From the IMG/VR virus record IMGVR_UViG_2565956608_000011: a stretch of DNA of 36,995 nt; one strand, given 5' to 3'. The notes below the pieces were generated by a model. That model saw only the letters and a program-made list of their open reading frames with translations, searched no databases and was not told the DNA's origin. Source of the DNA: a virus (Duplodnaviria; Heunggongvirae; Uroviricota; Caudoviricetes). Shown one piece after another: positions 25,026-36,995 of this stretch. Numbering within the stretch: the stretch's first letter is position 1; every line of letters begins with the position of its first letter. The translations under genes and the position numbers were made by a program.

Positions 25026-26585
25026 TCAACCTTCATAGAGAAGTTTTTTCTTACGTATCTCTTCACTAAATGTCTTGGAATTCAAGTCAATCAAATTAAG
25101 ATCTCGAACTTTTCTAGATGCTGTATATTGACTAGTATCCAGCATATATGCCTCAAAAACTAAGCCATCAGCACCTTTCTTCAAAGTAACCCGAGACTGG
25201 ACTAAATGCACTAATCTTAAATCAATTAACTGGTTAATAGCATCCTTGACAGGGCCAGTCATTTTTTGATTAATTAGAAAAATATTACATTTTGCATCAT
25301 TCAAACAAAATGCCACAAGTTTTGTGAATGCTTCCTCCAAGGCAATACGATCATCATCAGCATCTAATTTAAATTCTTCACGCTTGATATCACCATATTC
25401 ACCAGTAGCAAGATTCACATCTTCTGCACCAATTCGAGGACCTCTAGGATGATCTGGCCCTCTTTCTCTCGCATGGTTAATAGCTTTAGTAAATATCCCA
25501 ATAAAGTCCCTAGTAACACCACCCGAAGCAATAATCAACCTATCTACTGCAGTCGTATTTAATAGTCCATTTACTGTGATAGGCGGCGTTTCTACCATTA
25601 GATTAGTGAGTATTTTTTGCATAAACTGTTTTAAAGTTGCAAATTTTTCCAAAGAAATATCTATATTTATTTCTTTTGCATCATCACCAAGTTTAACACC
25701 AGTAGGAGGATCTGTATGAATATACCATTCACTTCTATGCTTGATAGTACCAATTTTCAACCACAAACCATTTCCTTTGGCAACCCTATGAAAATAATCA
25801 ATAACTTTAGCCTGATCACTTCTTCTAATATGATATAGATCATCAAGTATTAAATATGCCGGCCCTTCAGACAATTCGGAAAGTTTGTTAAAAAACCTTT
25901 GAAACTTAAGTATATTTTGATGTAAGTATTCAGTTTTTAATGATTTATATCCTTCACTAATTTCTTTGGTACCTGTATTTCCTTTTTTAACTCCCACTCC
26001 TACATCTACTGGACCTTGCTTCAAGGAAGCATTACCAGAAGCTTCAAAACTTCTTGTGGAAGTTTCCTTTCTTTGCACATTAATTTCTTCTGGCTGCAAA
26101 AGTTTATTTTCTAAATCTTGAATGATGCCTTTGAGCTCACGGACAAGCTCATTTGTAGGATTTTTTTTGAAAGGTTTCCTTTCCGGCGCTCTACCAAAAA
26201 TTCGATTCCAAAAAGTAGTTTTAGTAGCTGGGGTTAATGCAGCAGTTTCTAACCAAACCTCGAATTCTTGTAGGCTTTTAATAAGAACACTAATTAGGAC
26301 ATCAGGGTATGAATGACCTTTAAATGTCTCCATATCAACAAAAGAAATTGGTCTTCTATCTATTGTTAGATCTGCAACTACCTTCCTCAACAATGAGGAC
26401 TTACCAGAGCCCCTTCTACCAAAAATCAAACTGTGCTGCTTGGCTTTCGATTGAGCAAGAACGCCAGGCGCGGGTTCTATGAATCTCTTGACATTTTCAG
26501 GCGTAGCCCTCATAGCTTCATCACACAAAATGATCAAGTTATCTACTTGTTCATCTCTTAACTGAGATATTTCGTTTTTAGACAT
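25026..26585 (-). CDS. cargo P-loop NTPase of unknown function (candidate anti-phage protein)
   Basis: 519-aa ORF with Walker A GRRGSGKSS (aa ~57-65) and Walker-B-like LILDDL (aa ~240) separated by a Lys/Glu-rich insert; AT-rich unlike the phage backbone; AAGGA RBS. Confidence 0.6.
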   Translation of the reverse strand: MSKNEISQLRDEQVDNLIILCDEAMRATPENVKRFIEPAPGVLAQSKAKQHSLIFGRRGSGKSSLLRKVVADLTIDRRPISFVDMETFKGHSYPDVLISVLIKSLQEFEVWLETAALTPATKTTFWNRIFGRAPERKPFKKNPTNELVRELKGIIQDLENKLLQPEEINVQRKETSTRSFEASGNASLKQGPVDVGVGVKKGNTGTKEISEGYKSLKTEYLHQNILKFQRFFNKLSELSEGPAYLILDDLYHIRRSDQAKVIDYFHRVAKGNGLWLKIGTIKHRSEWYIHTDPPTGVKLGDDAKEINIDISLEKFATLKQFMQKILTNLMVETPPITVNGLLNTTAVDRLIIASGGVTRDFIGIFTKAINHARERGPDHPRGPRIGAEDVNLATGEYGDIKREEFKLDADDDRIALEEAFTKLVAFCLNDAKCNIFLINQKMTGPVKDAINQLIDLRLVHLVQSRVTLKKGADGLVFEAYMLDTSQYTASRKVRDLNLIDLNSKTFSEEIRKKKLLYEG

Positions 26586-26966: not shown

Positions 26967-27707
26967 ATGACTGTGCACAAGCTCTCTGGTGCGTTTTTCC
27001 ACGATATGCAGGTTGAGTGGCCCTGCCCTAACTGCAATCAGAAAACCCTACAGATCATTAAAGAAAGTTTCGTCTCGTATGACACACATGATACCCGAAA
27101 ATTCCGCAGTGAAGATTGGTTTGAACCAGAAATGGATTCATCTATTTTCAGTTGCATGGCCCGCTGTTCAAGAATGCAATGTGGTGAAGTTGTGGCCTGT
27201 ACTGGTAAGAGTGGATGGGAACAAGGTTGGGATGAAGAAAGAAATGATATTGAGTACTATCAATGGCACAGACCTTTCACCTTTTACCCATCACTGCATC
27301 CTTTCGAAATACCTAAAAAATGCCCAGAAGAAATTACCGAACCGCTTGAAGCCTCATTTTCCATTTTCCTAATACAGCCTGGCGCAGCAGCAAACCTAAT
27401 TCGAATTTCAGTTGAAAGAATGCTAACCGCTATGGATGTAGCTGAACGTAATGATAATGGCAAACGCATAACTCTACACCACCGTTTAGGGATGCTACCT
27501 GAATTATACGGATCGTTTTCAAGACCTCTTATGGCAATTAAATTTTTAGGAAATGCCGGAAGCCATACCTACGATGAAGTAAAAGTCAAAGACATTGAGG
27601 ATGCTTTTGAGATTATGGAGTACGTCGTCAATGACTTGTTCTCCGGTCGCAAAGAATCTGTCGAAGTATTGACGAAACGATTAAGTGAAAAATTCAAAGA
27701 AAACTGA
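26967..27707 (+). CDS. cargo protein: N-terminal zinc ribbon plus C-terminal DUF4145-like domain (candidate defence protein)
   Basis: 246-aa ORF with GAGGAA RBS; CPNC...C-x3-C-x4-C cysteine cluster; C-terminal region (LGNAGSHTYDEVKVKDIEDAFEIMEYVVNDLF) resembles DUF4145 from memory; AT-rich. Confidence 0.55.
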   Translation: MTVHKLSGAFFHDMQVEWPCPNCNQKTLQIIKESFVSYDTHDTRKFRSEDWFEPEMDSSIFSCMARCSRMQCGEVVACTGKSGWEQGWDEERNDIEYYQWHRPFTFYPSLHPFEIPKKCPEEITEPLEASFSIFLIQPGAAANLIRISVERMLTAMDVAERNDNGKRITLHHRLGMLPELYGSFSRPLMAIKFLGNAGSHTYDEVKVKDIEDAFEIMEYVVNDLFSGRKESVEVLTKRLSEKFKEN

Positions 27708-27835: not shown

Positions 27836-28069
27836 CTAATGCAGCCAGCTGTCGTCTTCCCACACCTTCTGCATAATTTTCATCACTTGTTTTCTTTCTT
27901 CGTCCAGTTGCAGTCCGGTCAGTTCCACACCGTTAGAGCTACCTTTGCGGATACGAATTACCGTTTTTGGATACAGGGGGCGCAGATTGCGGTAAAGCTC
28001 GGATTCAAGGGCATCCAGGATAGACTGGCTAATCTTCTGCTCTTTATCGATCATTATTTCAATGCGCAT
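27836..28069 (-). CDS. dinI: DinI-family protein
   Basis: 77-aa product from Met MRIEIMIDK with GAGGTG RBS; N-terminal MRIE and C-terminal WEDDSWL resemble DinI. Confidence 0.7.
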   Translation of the reverse strand: MRIEIMIDKEQKISQSILDALESELYRNLRPLYPKTVIRIRKGSSNGVELTGLQLDEERKQVMKIMQKVWEDDSWLH

Positions 28070-28079
28070 AAAAGTCACC

Positions 28080-28268
28080 TCAACTGATGACATCCATTGA
28101 GCGGTTGTATTCGTGGGTTCTGATTTTTGCCATGAGTTCATCTGTTAGTTCAGAAACCCACTGCAAAGCCAGCCCCTTCTCTTCATCACTACACTCACTA
28201 GCCGCTACAAGCTTAAGAAAAAAATCAATGCGCTGGAGCTTCAAAGACTCCAAAAAATAGTCCTGCAT
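28080..28268 (-). CDS. small SOS-controlled protein, possible Tum-like antirepressor
   Basis: 62-aa product from internal Met MQDYFLESL with AGGAGG RBS; LexA box lies just upstream; position matches the 186 tum operon between A and cos. Confidence 0.45.
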   Translation of the reverse strand: MQDYFLESLKLQRIDFFLKLVAASECSDEEKGLALQWVSELTDELMAKIRTHEYNRSMDVIS

Positions 28269-28311
28269 TTTTCCTCCTATGACACCACAAGCAATACTGT
28301 ATGCATAACCA

Positions 28312-28327
28312 CTGTTTATATTTACAG
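28312..28327. promoter_or_regulatory. LexA operator (SOS box) overlapping the promoter of the small-protein/dinI operon
   Basis: CTGTTTATATTTACAG (CTGT-N8-ACAG) within CACTGTTTATATTTACAGTA; candidate TTTACA -35 and TATACT -10 on the minus strand overlap it. Confidence 0.7.
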
Positions 28328-28421
28328 TATATAATAATCTTACTGATGTAAAACGTTTTTTTACGTTCATCAGCCTGATATGCCTGGTATTATTAAGAGC
28401 ACGAATTGTTAACCCGCGTAA

Positions 28422-30836
28422 TTAATACAGATCCCGCCACTTATCATCTTCCTGCAAACGCTGGTTCCGATAGAAGATACGCAGGCCTGCTCCTGACGGA
28501 ATACTGCCGCCGCGAAGGAGTAAATCGACCTCTTTCTCGCTGCCATCAAATCCTCTGGACTTCAGTTCATAGACGAGCTGCTGTCGTTGATGGTCTGTAA
28601 TTCGCTGTTTGTAGTCTCTACGCCGTTTCGGTTTCACCAGGCGTAACCTTGCAGCCAGTTCCCGGCGTTCTTTTTTGTTCATACTGTGCAGGTAATCGTG
28701 CAACTCCTTGTCATCCATACGGGTGATATCCGTTCTGGTATCCCCATCAGCTGATTTGTCTTTCCCTTGTTGGTACAAATTTTCAGCAAGGGGACAGTTA
28801 TTGCCACGAGTCCAAGGGGCGCAAGCGCCCTGGTCGGCTGCCGCCTCCTGAACATCAACGGCCTTACGAACCATTTTCCACTTCACGGCATGAGTGCAGA
28901 TCTTGCCCTCTGCAATAGGTGACCAGATGCCATAAATACGAATGCCGTGATCGCCATAGGCGGTCGGCTCTTCGTTGATTTCATAAGCGGTTCTGATGAG
29001 GTGATATTTGCGGGGAACCAGTACGCCGCCCTGCTTCATGATGTAGGTGGCAAAACAACCAGCATCAGCAGCAGCCAGGATGGCATCAAGGCGTGGGTTA
29101 TCCAGTACCGGCGCACCTGCTTTTTTGTCCCCCTGTTGCCTTGCCGCCTGACCAGCCAGCAATCGCAGTTCACGGTAAGCCTGACGCCCCGGAATGCCAA
29201 AGAAGCGGAATTGCTGAACACGATGCAGAGACGCCCAGGCATTAACGTATTCAGCATTATCACGCAGGGATTTCCCCGTTTCCTTGCTGATCTCGCCAGC
29301 CAGACCACGCCCGTCAATGTTCTTACTGATGTATTTCGCGATGTAGCTTGTTGGCGTTCCTTTGCGCGGGTTAATCAACTCAGACTTAAAGCGCGGCCCA
29401 GTGTTATTGCCCAGCTCCTCGCGGTCTTCACGGATGGCAAACTTACGCAGTAATGCAGTGATGGCACGGCGGTCTTTTTTGCGCATGAAACACAACAGGT
29501 GCCAGTGAACTGTGCCGTCATGATGCGGCTCAGCCACCCGCACGCCATACCAGCGCAACCCGGCTTTGTGCATCGCCTTACGAAATGCAGCAAACATGCC
29601 GACCAGATAATCGCTGCTTTGTCTTACCGTCGCGTTTGTCCAGGTCGGGTTTGGTCTGCCGTTATTGAGCGTGGAATGGAAACGTGACGGACAGGTGATG
29701 GTGTAGAAAACGGCGCAGTCACCGCGCATTTCCGCGATAAGCTCCAGACCTTTAACACAGGCCATCATCTCATTGCGGCGATGCGCCGGGTTGCTGCTGC
29801 TGGCGTTTACCACATCCTCCATGTCCAGCGTGTCGCCGTCTTCGTTCACCAGTTCATGAGAACGGAAAAACTCCAGCGACTTACGGCGCTGCTCACGTTT
29901 ATGCATCACGGCTTCATAGCTGACATAGGGAGATGCTTTTTTGCTGACCAGGCAGACAGCACGCAACTGCTCTTCCCGCCATTCGCAACGCATCTTCCAT
30001 AATTTCCGATACCACCAATCGGCGCACAACATACGCGCCAGCGAACCCGGAATGAGTTCATAGGGCACGGGTTTACGGCGGTTTCTTTTCCAACGGAGTT
30101 GCTCAAACGCAGGAGGGATTACATCCAGACGCAGGGTTTCCGCTGCCACCTTTTCCCATGTCTTGCGGATTTCTTCTGGCTTAACGTCATCGGTGGCATA
30201 CAAATCACCACAAGCTGCATCAAGGCACATGCTCATATGCGCGGCAACAAGGGTAGACAGGCGCTTCACCTGATCCTGACTCATTTCAGGCAGGATCAGC
30301 AGGCCGTCCAGCCCTTCATGGCTTGCCATAAAGCGAAAAGAAGTGGATAGCTGACTCTCGCGTACATGCTCCAGTCGTTCCAGACATGGCTTAATCGTCT
30401 CACGCAAATAGCGGGAATAAGCCTTTGGCCTGCCCAGGCTGCTGAAGTATTCAATACGTTGCATCAGCGGCTTGCTGATATGGGAAGGCTGGGCGTTGAC
30501 GTCCGCCAGAATGACCATATCCGGATTAAAACGCTGCTGCTCATGCGCCAGCTTTGCCCGACTAATGAGCTTATCCTGCTCGATTTCGCGCTGGACAGGA
30601 TCACGGGATTCATTAAAGAAATAACGCTCCCAGACCTGATCACTCAGCGCCTCACGGCGCAGCTGTTCCTGCTCGTTATCGGCAGCGTACAGAGTGATCA
30701 GGTTTGAAAGCGCAGAAACCGGCGCAACTTCCGCCGGGTCCAGATAAGGGTTAATGGCCTTTTTCGGGCTGCTCCATGAGAATGCTGCTGCGACCTCGTT
30801 AAAGCCGCTGCAGTTGTTCATATCAGCATGGCTCAT
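28422..30836 (-). CDS. A: replication initiation protein A (rolling-circle nickase type)
   Basis: 804-aa ORF, last large gene of the early operon; recognised as P2/186 gpA-like. Confidence 0.85.
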
Positions 30837-33586: not shown

Positions 33587-34183
33587 ATGTCAACATCAAA
33601 GTACCCAAATGAGATCAAAATAAATCCCAATAAAGGTGGTAAGGCTGCGATTGAGCGATTAGTCGAAGCTTATGGCTTTACGACACGACAGGCTTTAGCT
33701 GATCACTTGGAAGTATCAAAAAGCACTCTGGCGAACAGGTATTTGCGGGATACGTTTCCTGCAGACTGGATAATCCAATGTGCTCTTGAAACAGGAACCT
33801 CACTGAAATGGTTAACCACCGGGCAAGGCCTTAAGCAAAGCTCGCTGACAGCAGCTACAGAAGAGCTTGCCAAGTTTCGCCTTACCGCAGGCAAAATGAT
33901 TGAAGATGGTTCATATGTCTTCGATTCATCATTTCTTCCTGCAAATCTTTCATCACCAATTGTTATTCAGGATGGGCTCGTCACATACATTTGTGATCAA
34001 AAATTTTCTGAAGTACTTGATGGGCACTGGTTAATCAACATCGACGGAACCTATTCCATTCGAAAAATCACAAAGCTTCCAAAAGGTATGATTAAAATTA
34101 CAAGTACAGAGAATAGCTTTGAATGTGCATTTTCTGATATTGAAGTAGTTGCTTGTATAAGAAGTACAATAGTTTCAAATTAA
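33587..34183 (+). CDS. cI: immunity repressor CI (186-type, two-domain)
   Basis: 198-aa ORF with N-terminal HTH region (TTRQALADHLEVSKSTLANR), placed between apl and int. Confidence 0.75.
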   Translation: MSTSKYPNEIKINPNKGGKAAIERLVEAYGFTTRQALADHLEVSKSTLANRYLRDTFPADWIIQCALETGTSLKWLTTGQGLKQSSLTAATEELAKFRLTAGKMIEDGSYVFDSSFLPANLSSPIVIQDGLVTYICDQKFSEVLDGHWLINIDGTYSIRKITKLPKGMIKITSTENSFECAFSDIEVVACIRSTIVSN

Positions 34184-34203: not shown

Positions 34204-35880
34204 ATGAATTCATTTTCCATCGTTATATTCTTATTAGCATTTCTCGCCCCCATTCTAGCTGTAATATTATTTAAGCAAAGCAAAAAACATAAAGCGGCTA
34301 TAGATACCTTGACAGCTAACAACATAGCCCTTTCCAACCAACTGAAAGAAAATCAAGAAGAATTAGCACAGACTGTACGAGATCTATCAGAGCTTGAAGG
34401 ACGAGCTGCACCATTATGGCAATACGTAGAATTGCACAGCGCAGTGATGGAAGCAGAGAATAAGATAAAAAATGCAGACTCAATAGCCAGGCAAAAAATA
34501 GAAGAAGCCCAAATAAAGGCTGCTAAGACAGTAAACGAAGCAAATTATCAAGCTCAGATAAAAATAAGCAACGCTAATAGCGAAGCTATAGCAATTACTA
34601 AAGACGCTCGCGATGCACGCCTGAAAGCTAAAGAACGTCTTGATAATGCCAATAGTAAAGCAAATGAGCTGATCTCAAATGCTAATGACAATGCAGTGAA
34701 AATTATTTCCGATGCAGAAGAAAGAGCAAAAGAGATTGCTGGTTCAGCATATGAAGCTAAAGAGTTTGCAGAAAAATATGAAGCAGTTGCCAAATCAATG
34801 AAAAATAAAATTGAAGGTTATGGTGATGAATGGATCATCCCTAACCGTAGCGTTCTCGATGAATTGGCAGAAAATTATGAGTTTACAGATGCAGGCAAGG
34901 AATTACAAAAAGCCAGGGAGTTAACAAAATCATTAATAAAAACTAATAAAGCTGCTTCGTGTGATTATGTTGAACAAAACAGGCGTAATACTGCTATCAA
35001 CTTTGTTTTAGATGCCTTCAATGGAAGAGTTGACAGTATTTTATCAAAAGTCAAACACAACAATTTTGGAAAACTTTCCCAAGAGATAAAAGATGCGTTT
35101 CAACTTGTAAATTACAATGGTTCTGCCTTTAGGTCCGCAAAAATAAGTGACATCTATCTTCAAGCTCGACTCAACGAGCTAAAATGGGGTGTTGCAGTTA
35201 ATGAAATTATGCTCGAAGAAAAAGAAGAGCAAAGAAGGATTAAAGAACAACTTCGTGAAGAGGAAAGAGCTCGTAGGGAGTATGAAAAAGCGATAAAAGA
35301 AGCTGAAAAAGAAGAGAAAGCTATTCAGCAAGCTATAAATAAAGCAACAAAAGAGCTTATGCTTGCAAATGAAGAACAACGCTTAGCTTTAGAGCAAAAA
35401 ATAGCTGAACTACAGTTAAAATATGAAGAAGCTGAAGCTAAAAACCAACGAGCTATTTCTATGGCTCAACAAACTAGATCAGGCCACGTTTATATAATTA
35501 GTAATATTGGCTCATTTGGCGAAGATGTATATAAAATTGGAATGACACGCCGCCTTGAACCACTTGATCGTGTTCGTGAACTCGGTGATGCTAGTGTTCC
35601 TTTTTCGTTCGATGTTCATGCGATGATTTATAGTGATGATGCACCATCATTAGAAAATCATCTGCATAAAGTCTTCAACGAAAAACAGGTCAATAAAATT
35701 AACTCACGAAAAGAGTTTTTCAACGTAAATATTAAAGAAATTAAGTCTGTTATTGAAGATATGAACATCAACGCACAATGGACAATGTTTGCGGAAGCGA
35801 AAGAATATAGAGAGTCACTGGCGATTGAGCAAGAGCGCAAAGCAGCAACTTCCGCCAACGATGAACTGCATGTTGCTTAG
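34204..35880 (+). CDS. cargo protein: N-terminal TM anchor, long coiled coil (DUF4041-like), C-terminal T5orf172/GIY-YIG-like domain
   Basis: 558-aa AT-rich ORF inserted between cI and int; hydrophobic N-terminus SIVIFLLAFLAPILAVILF; repeated NANS/NADS heptad segments; C-terminal HVYIISN...YKIGMTRRLEPLDRVREL. Confidence 0.6.
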   Translation: MNSFSIVIFLLAFLAPILAVILFKQSKKHKAAIDTLTANNIALSNQLKENQEELAQTVRDLSELEGRAAPLWQYVELHSAVMEAENKIKNADSIARQKIEEAQIKAAKTVNEANYQAQIKISNANSEAIAITKDARDARLKAKERLDNANSKANELISNANDNAVKIISDAEERAKEIAGSAYEAKEFAEKYEAVAKSMKNKIEGYGDEWIIPNRSVLDELAENYEFTDAGKELQKARELTKSLIKTNKAASCDYVEQNRRNTAINFVLDAFNGRVDSILSKVKHNNFGKLSQEIKDAFQLVNYNGSAFRSAKISDIYLQARLNELKWGVAVNEIMLEEKEEQRRIKEQLREEERARREYEKAIKEAEKEEKAIQQAINKATKELMLANEEQRLALEQKIAELQLKYEEAEAKNQRAISMAQQTRSGHVYIISNIGSFGEDVYKIGMTRRLEPLDRVRELGDASVPFSFDVHAMIYSDDAPSLENHLHKVFNEKQVNKINSRKEFFNVNIKEIKSVIEDMNINAQWTMFAEAKEYRESLAIEQERKAATSANDELHVA

Positions 35881-35963: not shown

Positions 35964-36995
35964 ATGGCAGTACGAAAACTCACCACAGGAAAATGGCTTT
36001 GCGAATGTTACCCCGCCGGACGTAGTGGACGTCGTGTGCGTAAACAATTCGCCACCAAAGGCGAAGCTCTGGCTTTTGAGCGTCACACGATGGAAGAAAC
36101 CGAAGCAAAGCCCTGGCTGGGTGAATCAGTGGATCGTCGAACACTGAAAGACGTGGTTGAACTATGGTTCAAACTACATGGTAAATCTCTGACAGCTGGG
36201 CAGCATGTCTATGACAAATTGCTGTTGATGGTTGACGCTCTGGGCAATCCCCTTGCAACCGATCTCACCTCTAAAATGTTTGCCCACTATCGAGATAAAC
36301 GTCTGACAGGAGAGATCTACTTCAGCGAAAAATGGAAGAAAGGAGCAAGCCCGGTCACCATTAACCTGGAGCAAAGCTATCTAAGTAGTGTTTTTAGCGA
36401 ACTATCCCGCCTGGGCGAATGGTCGTATCCGAACCCACTGGAGAACATGCGAAAATTCACCATCGCAGAAAAAGAGATGGCATGGCTTACCCATGAGCAG
36501 ATTGTTGAATTGCTGGCTGATTGCAAACGTCAGGACCCAATTCTGGCACTGGTAGTTAAGATATGCTTAAGCACAGGCGCACGTTGGCGTGAAGCCGTAA
36601 ATCTTACCCGCTCACAGGTGACCAAATACCGAATTACCTTTGTAAGAACGAAGGGGAAGAAAAACAGAAGCATCCCTATCAGTAAAGAGCTTTACGAAGA
36701 GATCATGGCGCTTGATGGGTTCAATTTCTTTACAGACTGCTATTTTCAATTTTTATCCGTGATGGAAAAAACGTCTATCGTGCTCCCTCGCGGTCAACTG
36801 ACACACGTTCTGCGCCATACGTTTGCGGCGCACTTCATGATGTCGGGTGGAAATATCCTGGCCTTACAAAAAATTCTCGGGCATCACGATATAAAAATGA
36901 CTATGCGTTACGCACATCTGGCACCGGATCACCTGGAAACTGCATTACGGTTTAATCCGCTGGCAACACTACCAACATCAATAGCAAGTTTTTGA
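35964..36995 (+). CDS. int: tyrosine integrase (P2/186 family)
   Basis: 343-aa ORF with C-terminal catalytic region (RHTFAAHFMMSGGNILALQKILGHHDIKMTMRYAHL); stop codon is the last triplet of the window. Confidence 0.85.
   Translation: MAVRKLTTGKWLCECYPAGRSGRRVRKQFATKGEALAFERHTMEETEAKPWLGESVDRRTLKDVVELWFKLHGKSLTAGQHVYDKLLLMVDALGNPLATDLTSKMFAHYRDKRLTGEIYFSEKWKKGASPVTINLEQSYLSSVFSELSRLGEWSYPNPLENMRKFTIAEKEMAWLTHEQIVELLADCKRQDPILALVVKICLSTGARWREAVNLTRSQVTKYRITFVRTKGKKNRSIPISKELYEEIMALDGFNFFTDCYFQFLSVMEKTSIVLPRGQLTHVLRHTFAAHFMMSGGNILALQKILGHHDIKMTMRYAHLAPDHLETALRFNPLATLPTSIASF

Follow-up and report, generated by a model that had tools for sequence, protein, structure and literature searches.

The stretch of viral DNA analysed here (36,995 bp, referred to as the window) carries two small genes directly downstream of gene A, behind a sequence that resembles a LexA operator. 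The question raised by this locus is whether the two genes form the switch through which the prophage responds to DNA damage and, if so, which of their products would act on the repressor. In the induction of phage 186, the LexA-repressed promoter p95 drives Tum, and Tum inhibits the CI repressor (PMC7708051); that Tum binds 186 CI and keeps it from its operators is known from Shearwin 1998, as cited in PMC3121763 and PMC7708051. The original prediction had placed a LexA-controlled operon at 27836-28370, regarded it as the probable SOS-induction module, and suggested a split or divergent antirepressor. We conclude that the module is probably a LexA-repressed tumA-tumB SOS-induction operon of a Fels-2/186-like (Peduoviridae) prophage, in which TumA would inactivate CI.

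The operon and its prophage

The window is a complete P2/186-like prophage. The features that matter for the argument are the following.

25026-26585, minus strand: ORC/CDC6-like AAA ATPase, 519 aa (PF24389, E = 6.5e-10; weak PADLOC match to mad8, 3e-6)
26967-27707, plus strand: DUF4145 protein, 246 aa (PF13643, E = 5e-13; weak PADLOC match to PD-T7-4, 2e-5)
27836-28069, minus strand: ORF2, tumB-type, 77 aa; DinI family, homologue of the C-terminal half of 186 Tum
28080-28268, minus strand: ORF1, tumA-type, 62 aa; predicted CI antirepressor and remote homologue of the N-terminal half of 186 Tum
28273-28278, minus strand: Shine-Dalgarno sequence AGGAGG of ORF1, 4 nt before the ATG at 28268
28310-28329, minus strand: predicted LexA (SOS) box, 17/20 to consensus, overlapping the -10 hexamer
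28324-28329, minus strand: candidate -10 hexamer TACTGT, coinciding with the left arm of the LexA box and identical to the annotated -10 of 186 p95
28343-28373, minus strand: imperfect hairpin CTGATGAACGT-AAAAAA-ACGTTttaCATCAG, located after the stop codon of gene A and ahead of the promoter
28347-28352, minus strand: candidate -35 hexamer TTTACA, 17 nt from TACTGT
28422-30836, minus strand: gene A, 804 aa (PHROG 'nicking at origin of replication', E = 5e-289)
33587-34183, plus strand: cI, encoding the 186-type immunity repressor on which the antirepressor is predicted to act
34204-35880, plus strand: PD-Lambda-1 defence protein, 558 aa, between cI and int (PADLOC PDLC03976, E = 4e-120)
35964-36995: int

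Genes for apl/cox, cII and a Dam methylase are also present in the window. The operon (27836-28329) lies on the minus strand like gene A, and the start codon of ORF1 is found 153 nt downstream of the end of that gene. This position, directly downstream of gene A and on the same strand, is common to the window, 186, PSP3 and Fels-2; in 186 it is occupied by the annotated, LexA-controlled p95-tum unit, in agreement with the original prediction. The range first proposed for the operon does contain both genes, but it is the union of two maximal mechanical reading frames, and a sensible start for ORF1 lies at 28268. Two further mechanical reading frames, antisense to the operon (27839-28087 and 28087-28260, both on the plus strand), were considered and rejected, as nothing was found in their support.

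Several other features of the prophage deserve mention. A full-length RybB sRNA gene is located at 2700-2778 on the plus strand (Rfam RF00110, 105 bits), just beyond the ogr end, and the prophage thus appears to adjoin rybB in an E. coli-like chromosome; Fels-2, in contrast, is reported to be integrated at ssrA. The 558-aa PD-Lambda-1 gene, which contains the Pfam domains DUF4041 and T5orf172/MUG113, occupies, as cargo, one of the known variable sites of such P2-like prophages. The ATPase and DUF4145 genes are cargo as well; they are divergently oriented, lie between the DinI-like gene and the portal gene Q, and possibly constitute a defence pair. In 186 and Fels-2 the same spot holds an orf97-like gene that is co-transcribed with tum (orf97 itself, downstream of tum, in 186; STM2726, following on the same strand, in Fels-2), whereas the convergent DUF4145 gene follows in the window, and in other relatives TIR, GAPS4 or Hypoth_Ymh genes occur there.

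A predicted LexA operator over a p95-like promoter

The near-consensus SOS box of the original prediction was recovered exactly where it had been placed. It reads CACTGTTTATATTTACAGTA on the plus strand and TACTGTAAATATAAACAGTG on the minus strand, compared with the LexA consensus TACTGTATATATATACAGTA, and it is the sole match with three or fewer mismatches across the 36,995-bp window. None of 100 dinucleotide-preserving shuffles reached this threshold. The core CTGT-N8-ACAG also occurs a single time in the window, against an expectation of 0.44, a figure that taken alone is within chance. The promoter that the box was said to overlap could likewise be located. Its hexamers, TTTACA-17-TACTGT, have the same architecture as the annotated 186 p95 promoter (TTCACA-18-TACTGT), and in both cases the LexA box lies over the -10 hexamer TACTGT and follows gene A in the same orientation. 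A scan with the sigma-70 consensus called no promoter at the candidate site. We discount this result because the same scan also fails to call the annotated 186 p95.

In 186, PSP3 (19/20), Fels-2 and 813R9, a box scoring 16-19/20 precedes the start codon by 35-61 nt, and the same limits apply to four distantly related homologues of ORF1 drawn from genomes and metagenomes (loci L005-L012; 34-45% identity at the protein level). At these distant loci the intergenic DNA around the box is not alignable, and the box is kept regardless. By analogy with 186, LexA would be expected to bind the predicted box and to render the promoter SOS-dependent.

Two further elements accompany the box. A perfect right half-site, ATACAGTA, occurs at 28295-28302 on the minus strand, within the 5' UTR and 7 nt downstream of the full box, and is kept in Fels-2 and 813R9. 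A second LexA box at this place was considered and rejected, since the right half-site is present without a left half and is therefore probably not a second operator. The imperfect hairpin upstream of the promoter overlaps the -35 hexamer with its 3' arm. It is also kept in Fels-2 and 813R9 and has no U-tract; folding of the RNA of region 28335-28425 gave -18.4 kcal/mol with a weak z-score of -2.5. The hairpin may act as a terminator or as an insulator against read-through from gene A. In the Gifsy prophages, terminator-like palindromes also precede the LexA boxes (Lemire 2011, PMC3121763).

These observations bear on two other ways of reading the region, both of which we consider very improbable. 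According to one, the LexA-like palindrome is fortuitous or vestigial, and the operon is transcribed by read-through as a continuation of the early lytic transcript of gene A, acting after induction and not bringing it about. The expected frequency of the core motif would allow this, and the upstream hairpin, as a weak terminator lacking a U-tract, makes read-through plausible. The full 20-mer match, however, was never reached in shuffled sequences, all relatives examined keep the box at this place although their flanking sequences diverge, and the equivalent promoter of 186 is documented to be SOS-dependent (PMC7708051); moreover, read-through and SOS control are not mutually exclusive. According to the other, the true first gene is a 96-aa reading frame that starts at the ATG at 28370, in which case the region of the LexA box would be coding. 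Such a frame does exist mechanically (28080-28370), and many metagenome and ENA entries are of corresponding length (87-101 aa). The extension nevertheless has no Shine-Dalgarno sequence, whereas AGGAGG stands just before the ATG at 28268; conservation within the family begins at the residues MQD; distant homologues that lack the extension keep the LexA box in non-homologous upstream DNA; and both NCBI and phage annotations call a protein of 62 aa. We therefore retain the two-gene operon with its predicted LexA-controlled promoter and a 62-aa first product.

A tum gene divided between ORF1 and ORF2

The second gene is readily assigned. As predicted, its 77-aa product is DinI-like: it matches the Pfam DinI family (PF06183) over model positions 1-63 of 63 with an E-value of 1.3e-22 (80.4 bits, compared with a cut-off of 24.2 bits), and it matches the E. 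coli DinI structure 1GHH at 3.6e-6. It also aligns with residues 71-145 of 186 Tum (41% identical, E = 9e-25), and is 77% identical to PSP3 TumB and identical at 76 of 77 positions to Fels-2 STM2726.1 (DinI/'TumB'). A gap of 10 nt separates ORF1 from ORF2, whose Shine-Dalgarno sequence, GAGGTG, overlaps the ORF1 stop codon. Across this junction, at 28074-28091 on the minus strand, a small hairpin (GTCATC-AGTTGA-GGTGAC, then TTTTAT) spans both the ORF1 stop codon and the ORF2 Shine-Dalgarno sequence. It was the sole, weak call of a terminator scan here, with 0.9 calls expected, and is thus within chance; it could couple translation of ORF2 to that of ORF1, or attenuate transcription. No convincing intrinsic terminator was found after ORF2, where hairpins are present but lack a U-tract.

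The relationship of the first gene is more remote. At 62 aa its product is much shorter than the 146-aa Tum, as the original prediction had remarked, and it is identical to Fels-2 STM2728 at 61 of 62 positions. BLASTP yielded no alignment of ORF1 with either 186 Tum or PSP3 TumA (for the latter, hhalign gave a probability of 6.9%), and searches of Pfam, PADLOC and PDB sequences with ORF1 returned no match. Any homology to Tum is therefore remote, and a comparison of profiles was needed. ORF1 belongs to the family phrog_698 (E = 3.6e-38), which is also matched by residues 1-70 of 186 Tum (6.7e-6), and ORF1 in turn matches phrog_8554 and phrog_1993, the families of the Tum N-terminal half (Tum-N). 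We aligned 31 diverse relatives of ORF1, collected from a search of 5.8 billion proteins and a search of 1.84 billion representative proteins, and compared them by hhalign with an alignment of 26 Tum-N relatives. The two families matched with an E-value of 1.6e-9 and a probability of 96.3%, residues 3-44 of one pairing in register with residues 3-44 of the other. They share the motif (E)-x-(L/I)-x-x-(Q/E)-R-(I/V)-x-(L/M)-x-x-(R/K)-L-x-A-x-x-x-C-x-x-x-(D/E)-(K/R)-x-(L/I)-A-L-x-(W/L)-(I/V)-(S/A)-E-(L/I). At the level of sequence profiles, ORF1 is thus a stand-alone homologue of the N-terminal half of Tum. As ORF2 is homologous to the C-terminal half, the window carries a 'split tum', which bears out the suggestion of a split antirepressor.

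The search of 1.84 billion representative proteins with ORF1 returned 66 clusters, nearly all of them stand-alone proteins of about 60-75 aa, and at single-sequence sensitivity there was no fused Tum-like protein among the matches. The 186-type Tum-N domain is itself widespread as a stand-alone protein of about 63-78 aa. AlphaFold2 models ORF1 as a two-helix hairpin (helices 5-23 and 28-61, pLDDT 86), for which a Foldseek search against the PDB gave nothing more specific than generic helical hairpins (best E = 0.64). The name 'levan regulatory protein', carried by UniRef and by one GenBank record of ORF1, was rejected, as no family search supports it.

The split arrangement as such is already known from two phages: tum of Fels-2 and PSP3 is divided in two by a stop codon, as stated in Lemire 2011 (PMC3121763) with reference to Bunny 2002. 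In the Salmonella LT2 prophage Fels-2 the module is practically the same, its DNA being 97.1% identical over the intergenic region and both genes, with the same LexA box, -35 and -10 hexamers and hairpin, and with the same position after gene A and the Dam methylase gene. PSP3 has the same two-gene split after gene A, and its record annotates tumA with 'UV induction of prophage', together with tumB; a personal communication relayed in Lemire 2011 (PMC3121763) identifies the upstream gene as the antirepressor. PSP3 TumA (60 aa), however, belongs to the 186 type and shows no significant direct similarity to ORF1. TumB of the window and TumB of PSP3 are 77% identical while TumA is unrecognisable by BLASTP, a pattern consistent with a conserved host target for TumB and with a TumA that follows the repressor of its phage.

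In 186 itself the order of the parts is the same as in the window, an antirepressor domain followed by a DinI-like domain, and both phages have a 186-type CI that is not cleavable. The N-terminal halves are related at the profile level only. The two halves form one 146-aa polypeptide in 186, whereas in the window a stop codon and a second Shine-Dalgarno sequence stand between them, although an internal Shine-Dalgarno sequence and a GTG start codon can also yield the DinI-like half of 186 Tum alone. At loci L005-L010, which carry distant relatives of ORF1 (34-42% identity), the LexA-boxed small gene, situated between gene A and convergent ogr/portal genes, stands alone without any DinI gene. 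The antirepressor-like gene would accordingly be the conserved core of the SOS module, and the DinI gene an optional addition.

The CI repressor as the predicted target

The CI protein of the window matches 186 CI over its full length (33% identity across 172 aligned residues, E = 4e-35) and consists of the domains Phage_CI_repr (PF07022) and Phage_CI_C (PF16452). An S24/LexA-like autopeptidase domain is absent from it by Pfam. Induction of the lambda type, by RecA-stimulated cleavage of the repressor, is therefore not expected, and SOS induction should need an antirepressor. The same logic is found in Gifsy-1, Gifsy-2, Gifsy-3 and Fels-1, in which a non-cleavable repressor is paired with a LexA-repressed small antirepressor (GfoA, GftA, FsoA) accompanied by a dinI homologue (Lemire 2011, PMC3121763); these, however, are lambdoid phages with a repressor of another family, and their operons have the reverse order, with dinI first (PMC3121763).

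Taken together, the data suggest the following mechanism. In the lysogen, host LexA bound to the box over the p95-like -10 hexamer would keep the two-gene operon off. Upon DNA damage, RecA-stimulated self-cleavage of LexA would derepress the promoter. The two-helix, 62-aa TumA would then bind the 186-type CI and release the lytic promoter, leading to lytic growth. TumB, the DinI-family protein, is likely to bind RecA filaments and to modulate the SOS signal, and it is probably not the protein that triggers induction; in the Gifsy prophages, deletion of the dinI homologue left induction unaffected (Lemire 2011, PMC3121763). Both the contact between TumA and CI and the part played by the DinI-like protein are putative.

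One could also regard the operon as an SOS-regulated accessory 'moron' module, whose DinI-like protein modulates RecA and whose ORF1 has some other role, with induction proceeding independently of both. We judge this improbable. It would agree with the fact that ORF2 alone belongs to a named family, ORF1 having drawn no match in Pfam, PADLOC or the PDB and being called a 'hypothetical protein' nearly everywhere. Our literature search found no experiment on exactly the protein family of ORF1, and antirepressor activity of a Fels-2-type protein is undocumented in the literature searched (which includes Bunny 2002 through summaries). It is difficult to reconcile, however, with the in-register homology of ORF1 to the N-terminal half of Tum, with the distant relatives that retain ORF1 alone behind a LexA box and dispense with the DinI gene, and with a CI that lacks a self-cleavage domain, so that SOS induction needs some antirepressor. 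Loss of LexA, moreover, is not tolerated in the Fels-2 host: according to the summary of Bunny 2002 in PMC12626290, all viable lexA-null isolates of Salmonella LT2 had lost Fels-2, which constitutes genetic evidence that LexA restrains Fels-2 induction. A tumA-tumB induction operon directed at CI thus remains the reading that we prefer.

The 62-aa TumA is 98-100% identical across phages whose CI proteins are only 37-59% identical overall (41% between Fels-2 and the window). Within these CI proteins, identity amounts to 71-83% for the N-terminal DNA-binding domain but falls to 28-37% for the C-terminal oligomerisation domain. Compared with the window, the values for individual phages are as follows.

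Fels-2: TumA core 100%, CI N-terminal domain 71%, C-terminal domain 28%
Kp4872-2: TumA core 100%, CI N-terminal domain 76%, C-terminal domain 33%
Kp4845-2: TumA core 100%, CI N-terminal domain 71%, C-terminal domain 35%
ST11-OXA48phi15.3: TumA core 100%, CI N-terminal domain 83%, C-terminal domain 37%
RE2010: TumA core 100% (Fels-2 TumA used in its place), CI N-terminal domain 82%, C-terminal domain 34%
186: divergent Tum type, CI N-terminal domain 44%
PSP3: divergent Tum type, CI N-terminal domain 47%
vB_YenM_06.16-2: divergent Tum type, CI N-terminal domain 48%

The N-terminal domain of PSP3 CI is duplicated. Among 12 phages, identity of the TumA core correlated with identity of the CI N-terminal domain with a Spearman coefficient of 0.85, compared with 0.27 for the C-terminal domain, both values being calculated from 66 pairs that are phylogenetically non-independent. 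That TumA identity follows the N-terminal domain suggests that TumA contacts the DNA-binding domain of CI, with the reservations that N-terminal domains are generally more conserved and that mosaic recombination could give the same pattern. A Fels-2-type TumA might then not be immunity-specific: by targeting the DNA-binding domain it could induce heteroimmune Fels-2-like prophages in trans. We put this forward tentatively, as a possibility that the sequence comparison raises but leaves rather unlikely. If true, P2-like prophages in E. coli, Klebsiella and Salmonella could engage in crosstalk of the Gifsy kind.

The module is widely distributed. It was found in 1125 of 5426 complete E. coli genomes, where the annotation always reads 'DinI-like family protein | hypothetical protein | replication endonuclease', and in 67 phage records from Klebsiella, Salmonella, Escherichia and Yersinia. 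The ORF1 protein is recorded as 'hypothetical protein' in RefSeq E. coli and in most phage records, and is sometimes over-called at 87-101 aa. Because publications from 2002-2011 already describe the split tum of Fels-2 and PSP3, the locus poses no new biological question. The practical gain lies in annotation, as the 62-aa 'hypothetical protein' can be named a TumA-type antirepressor homologue with support at the profile level. The analysis further implies that DNA damage, such as that caused by quinolones or mitomycin C, should induce this prophage through an antirepressor and not through cleavage of its repressor; prophages of this type are found in roughly one in five complete E. coli genomes.
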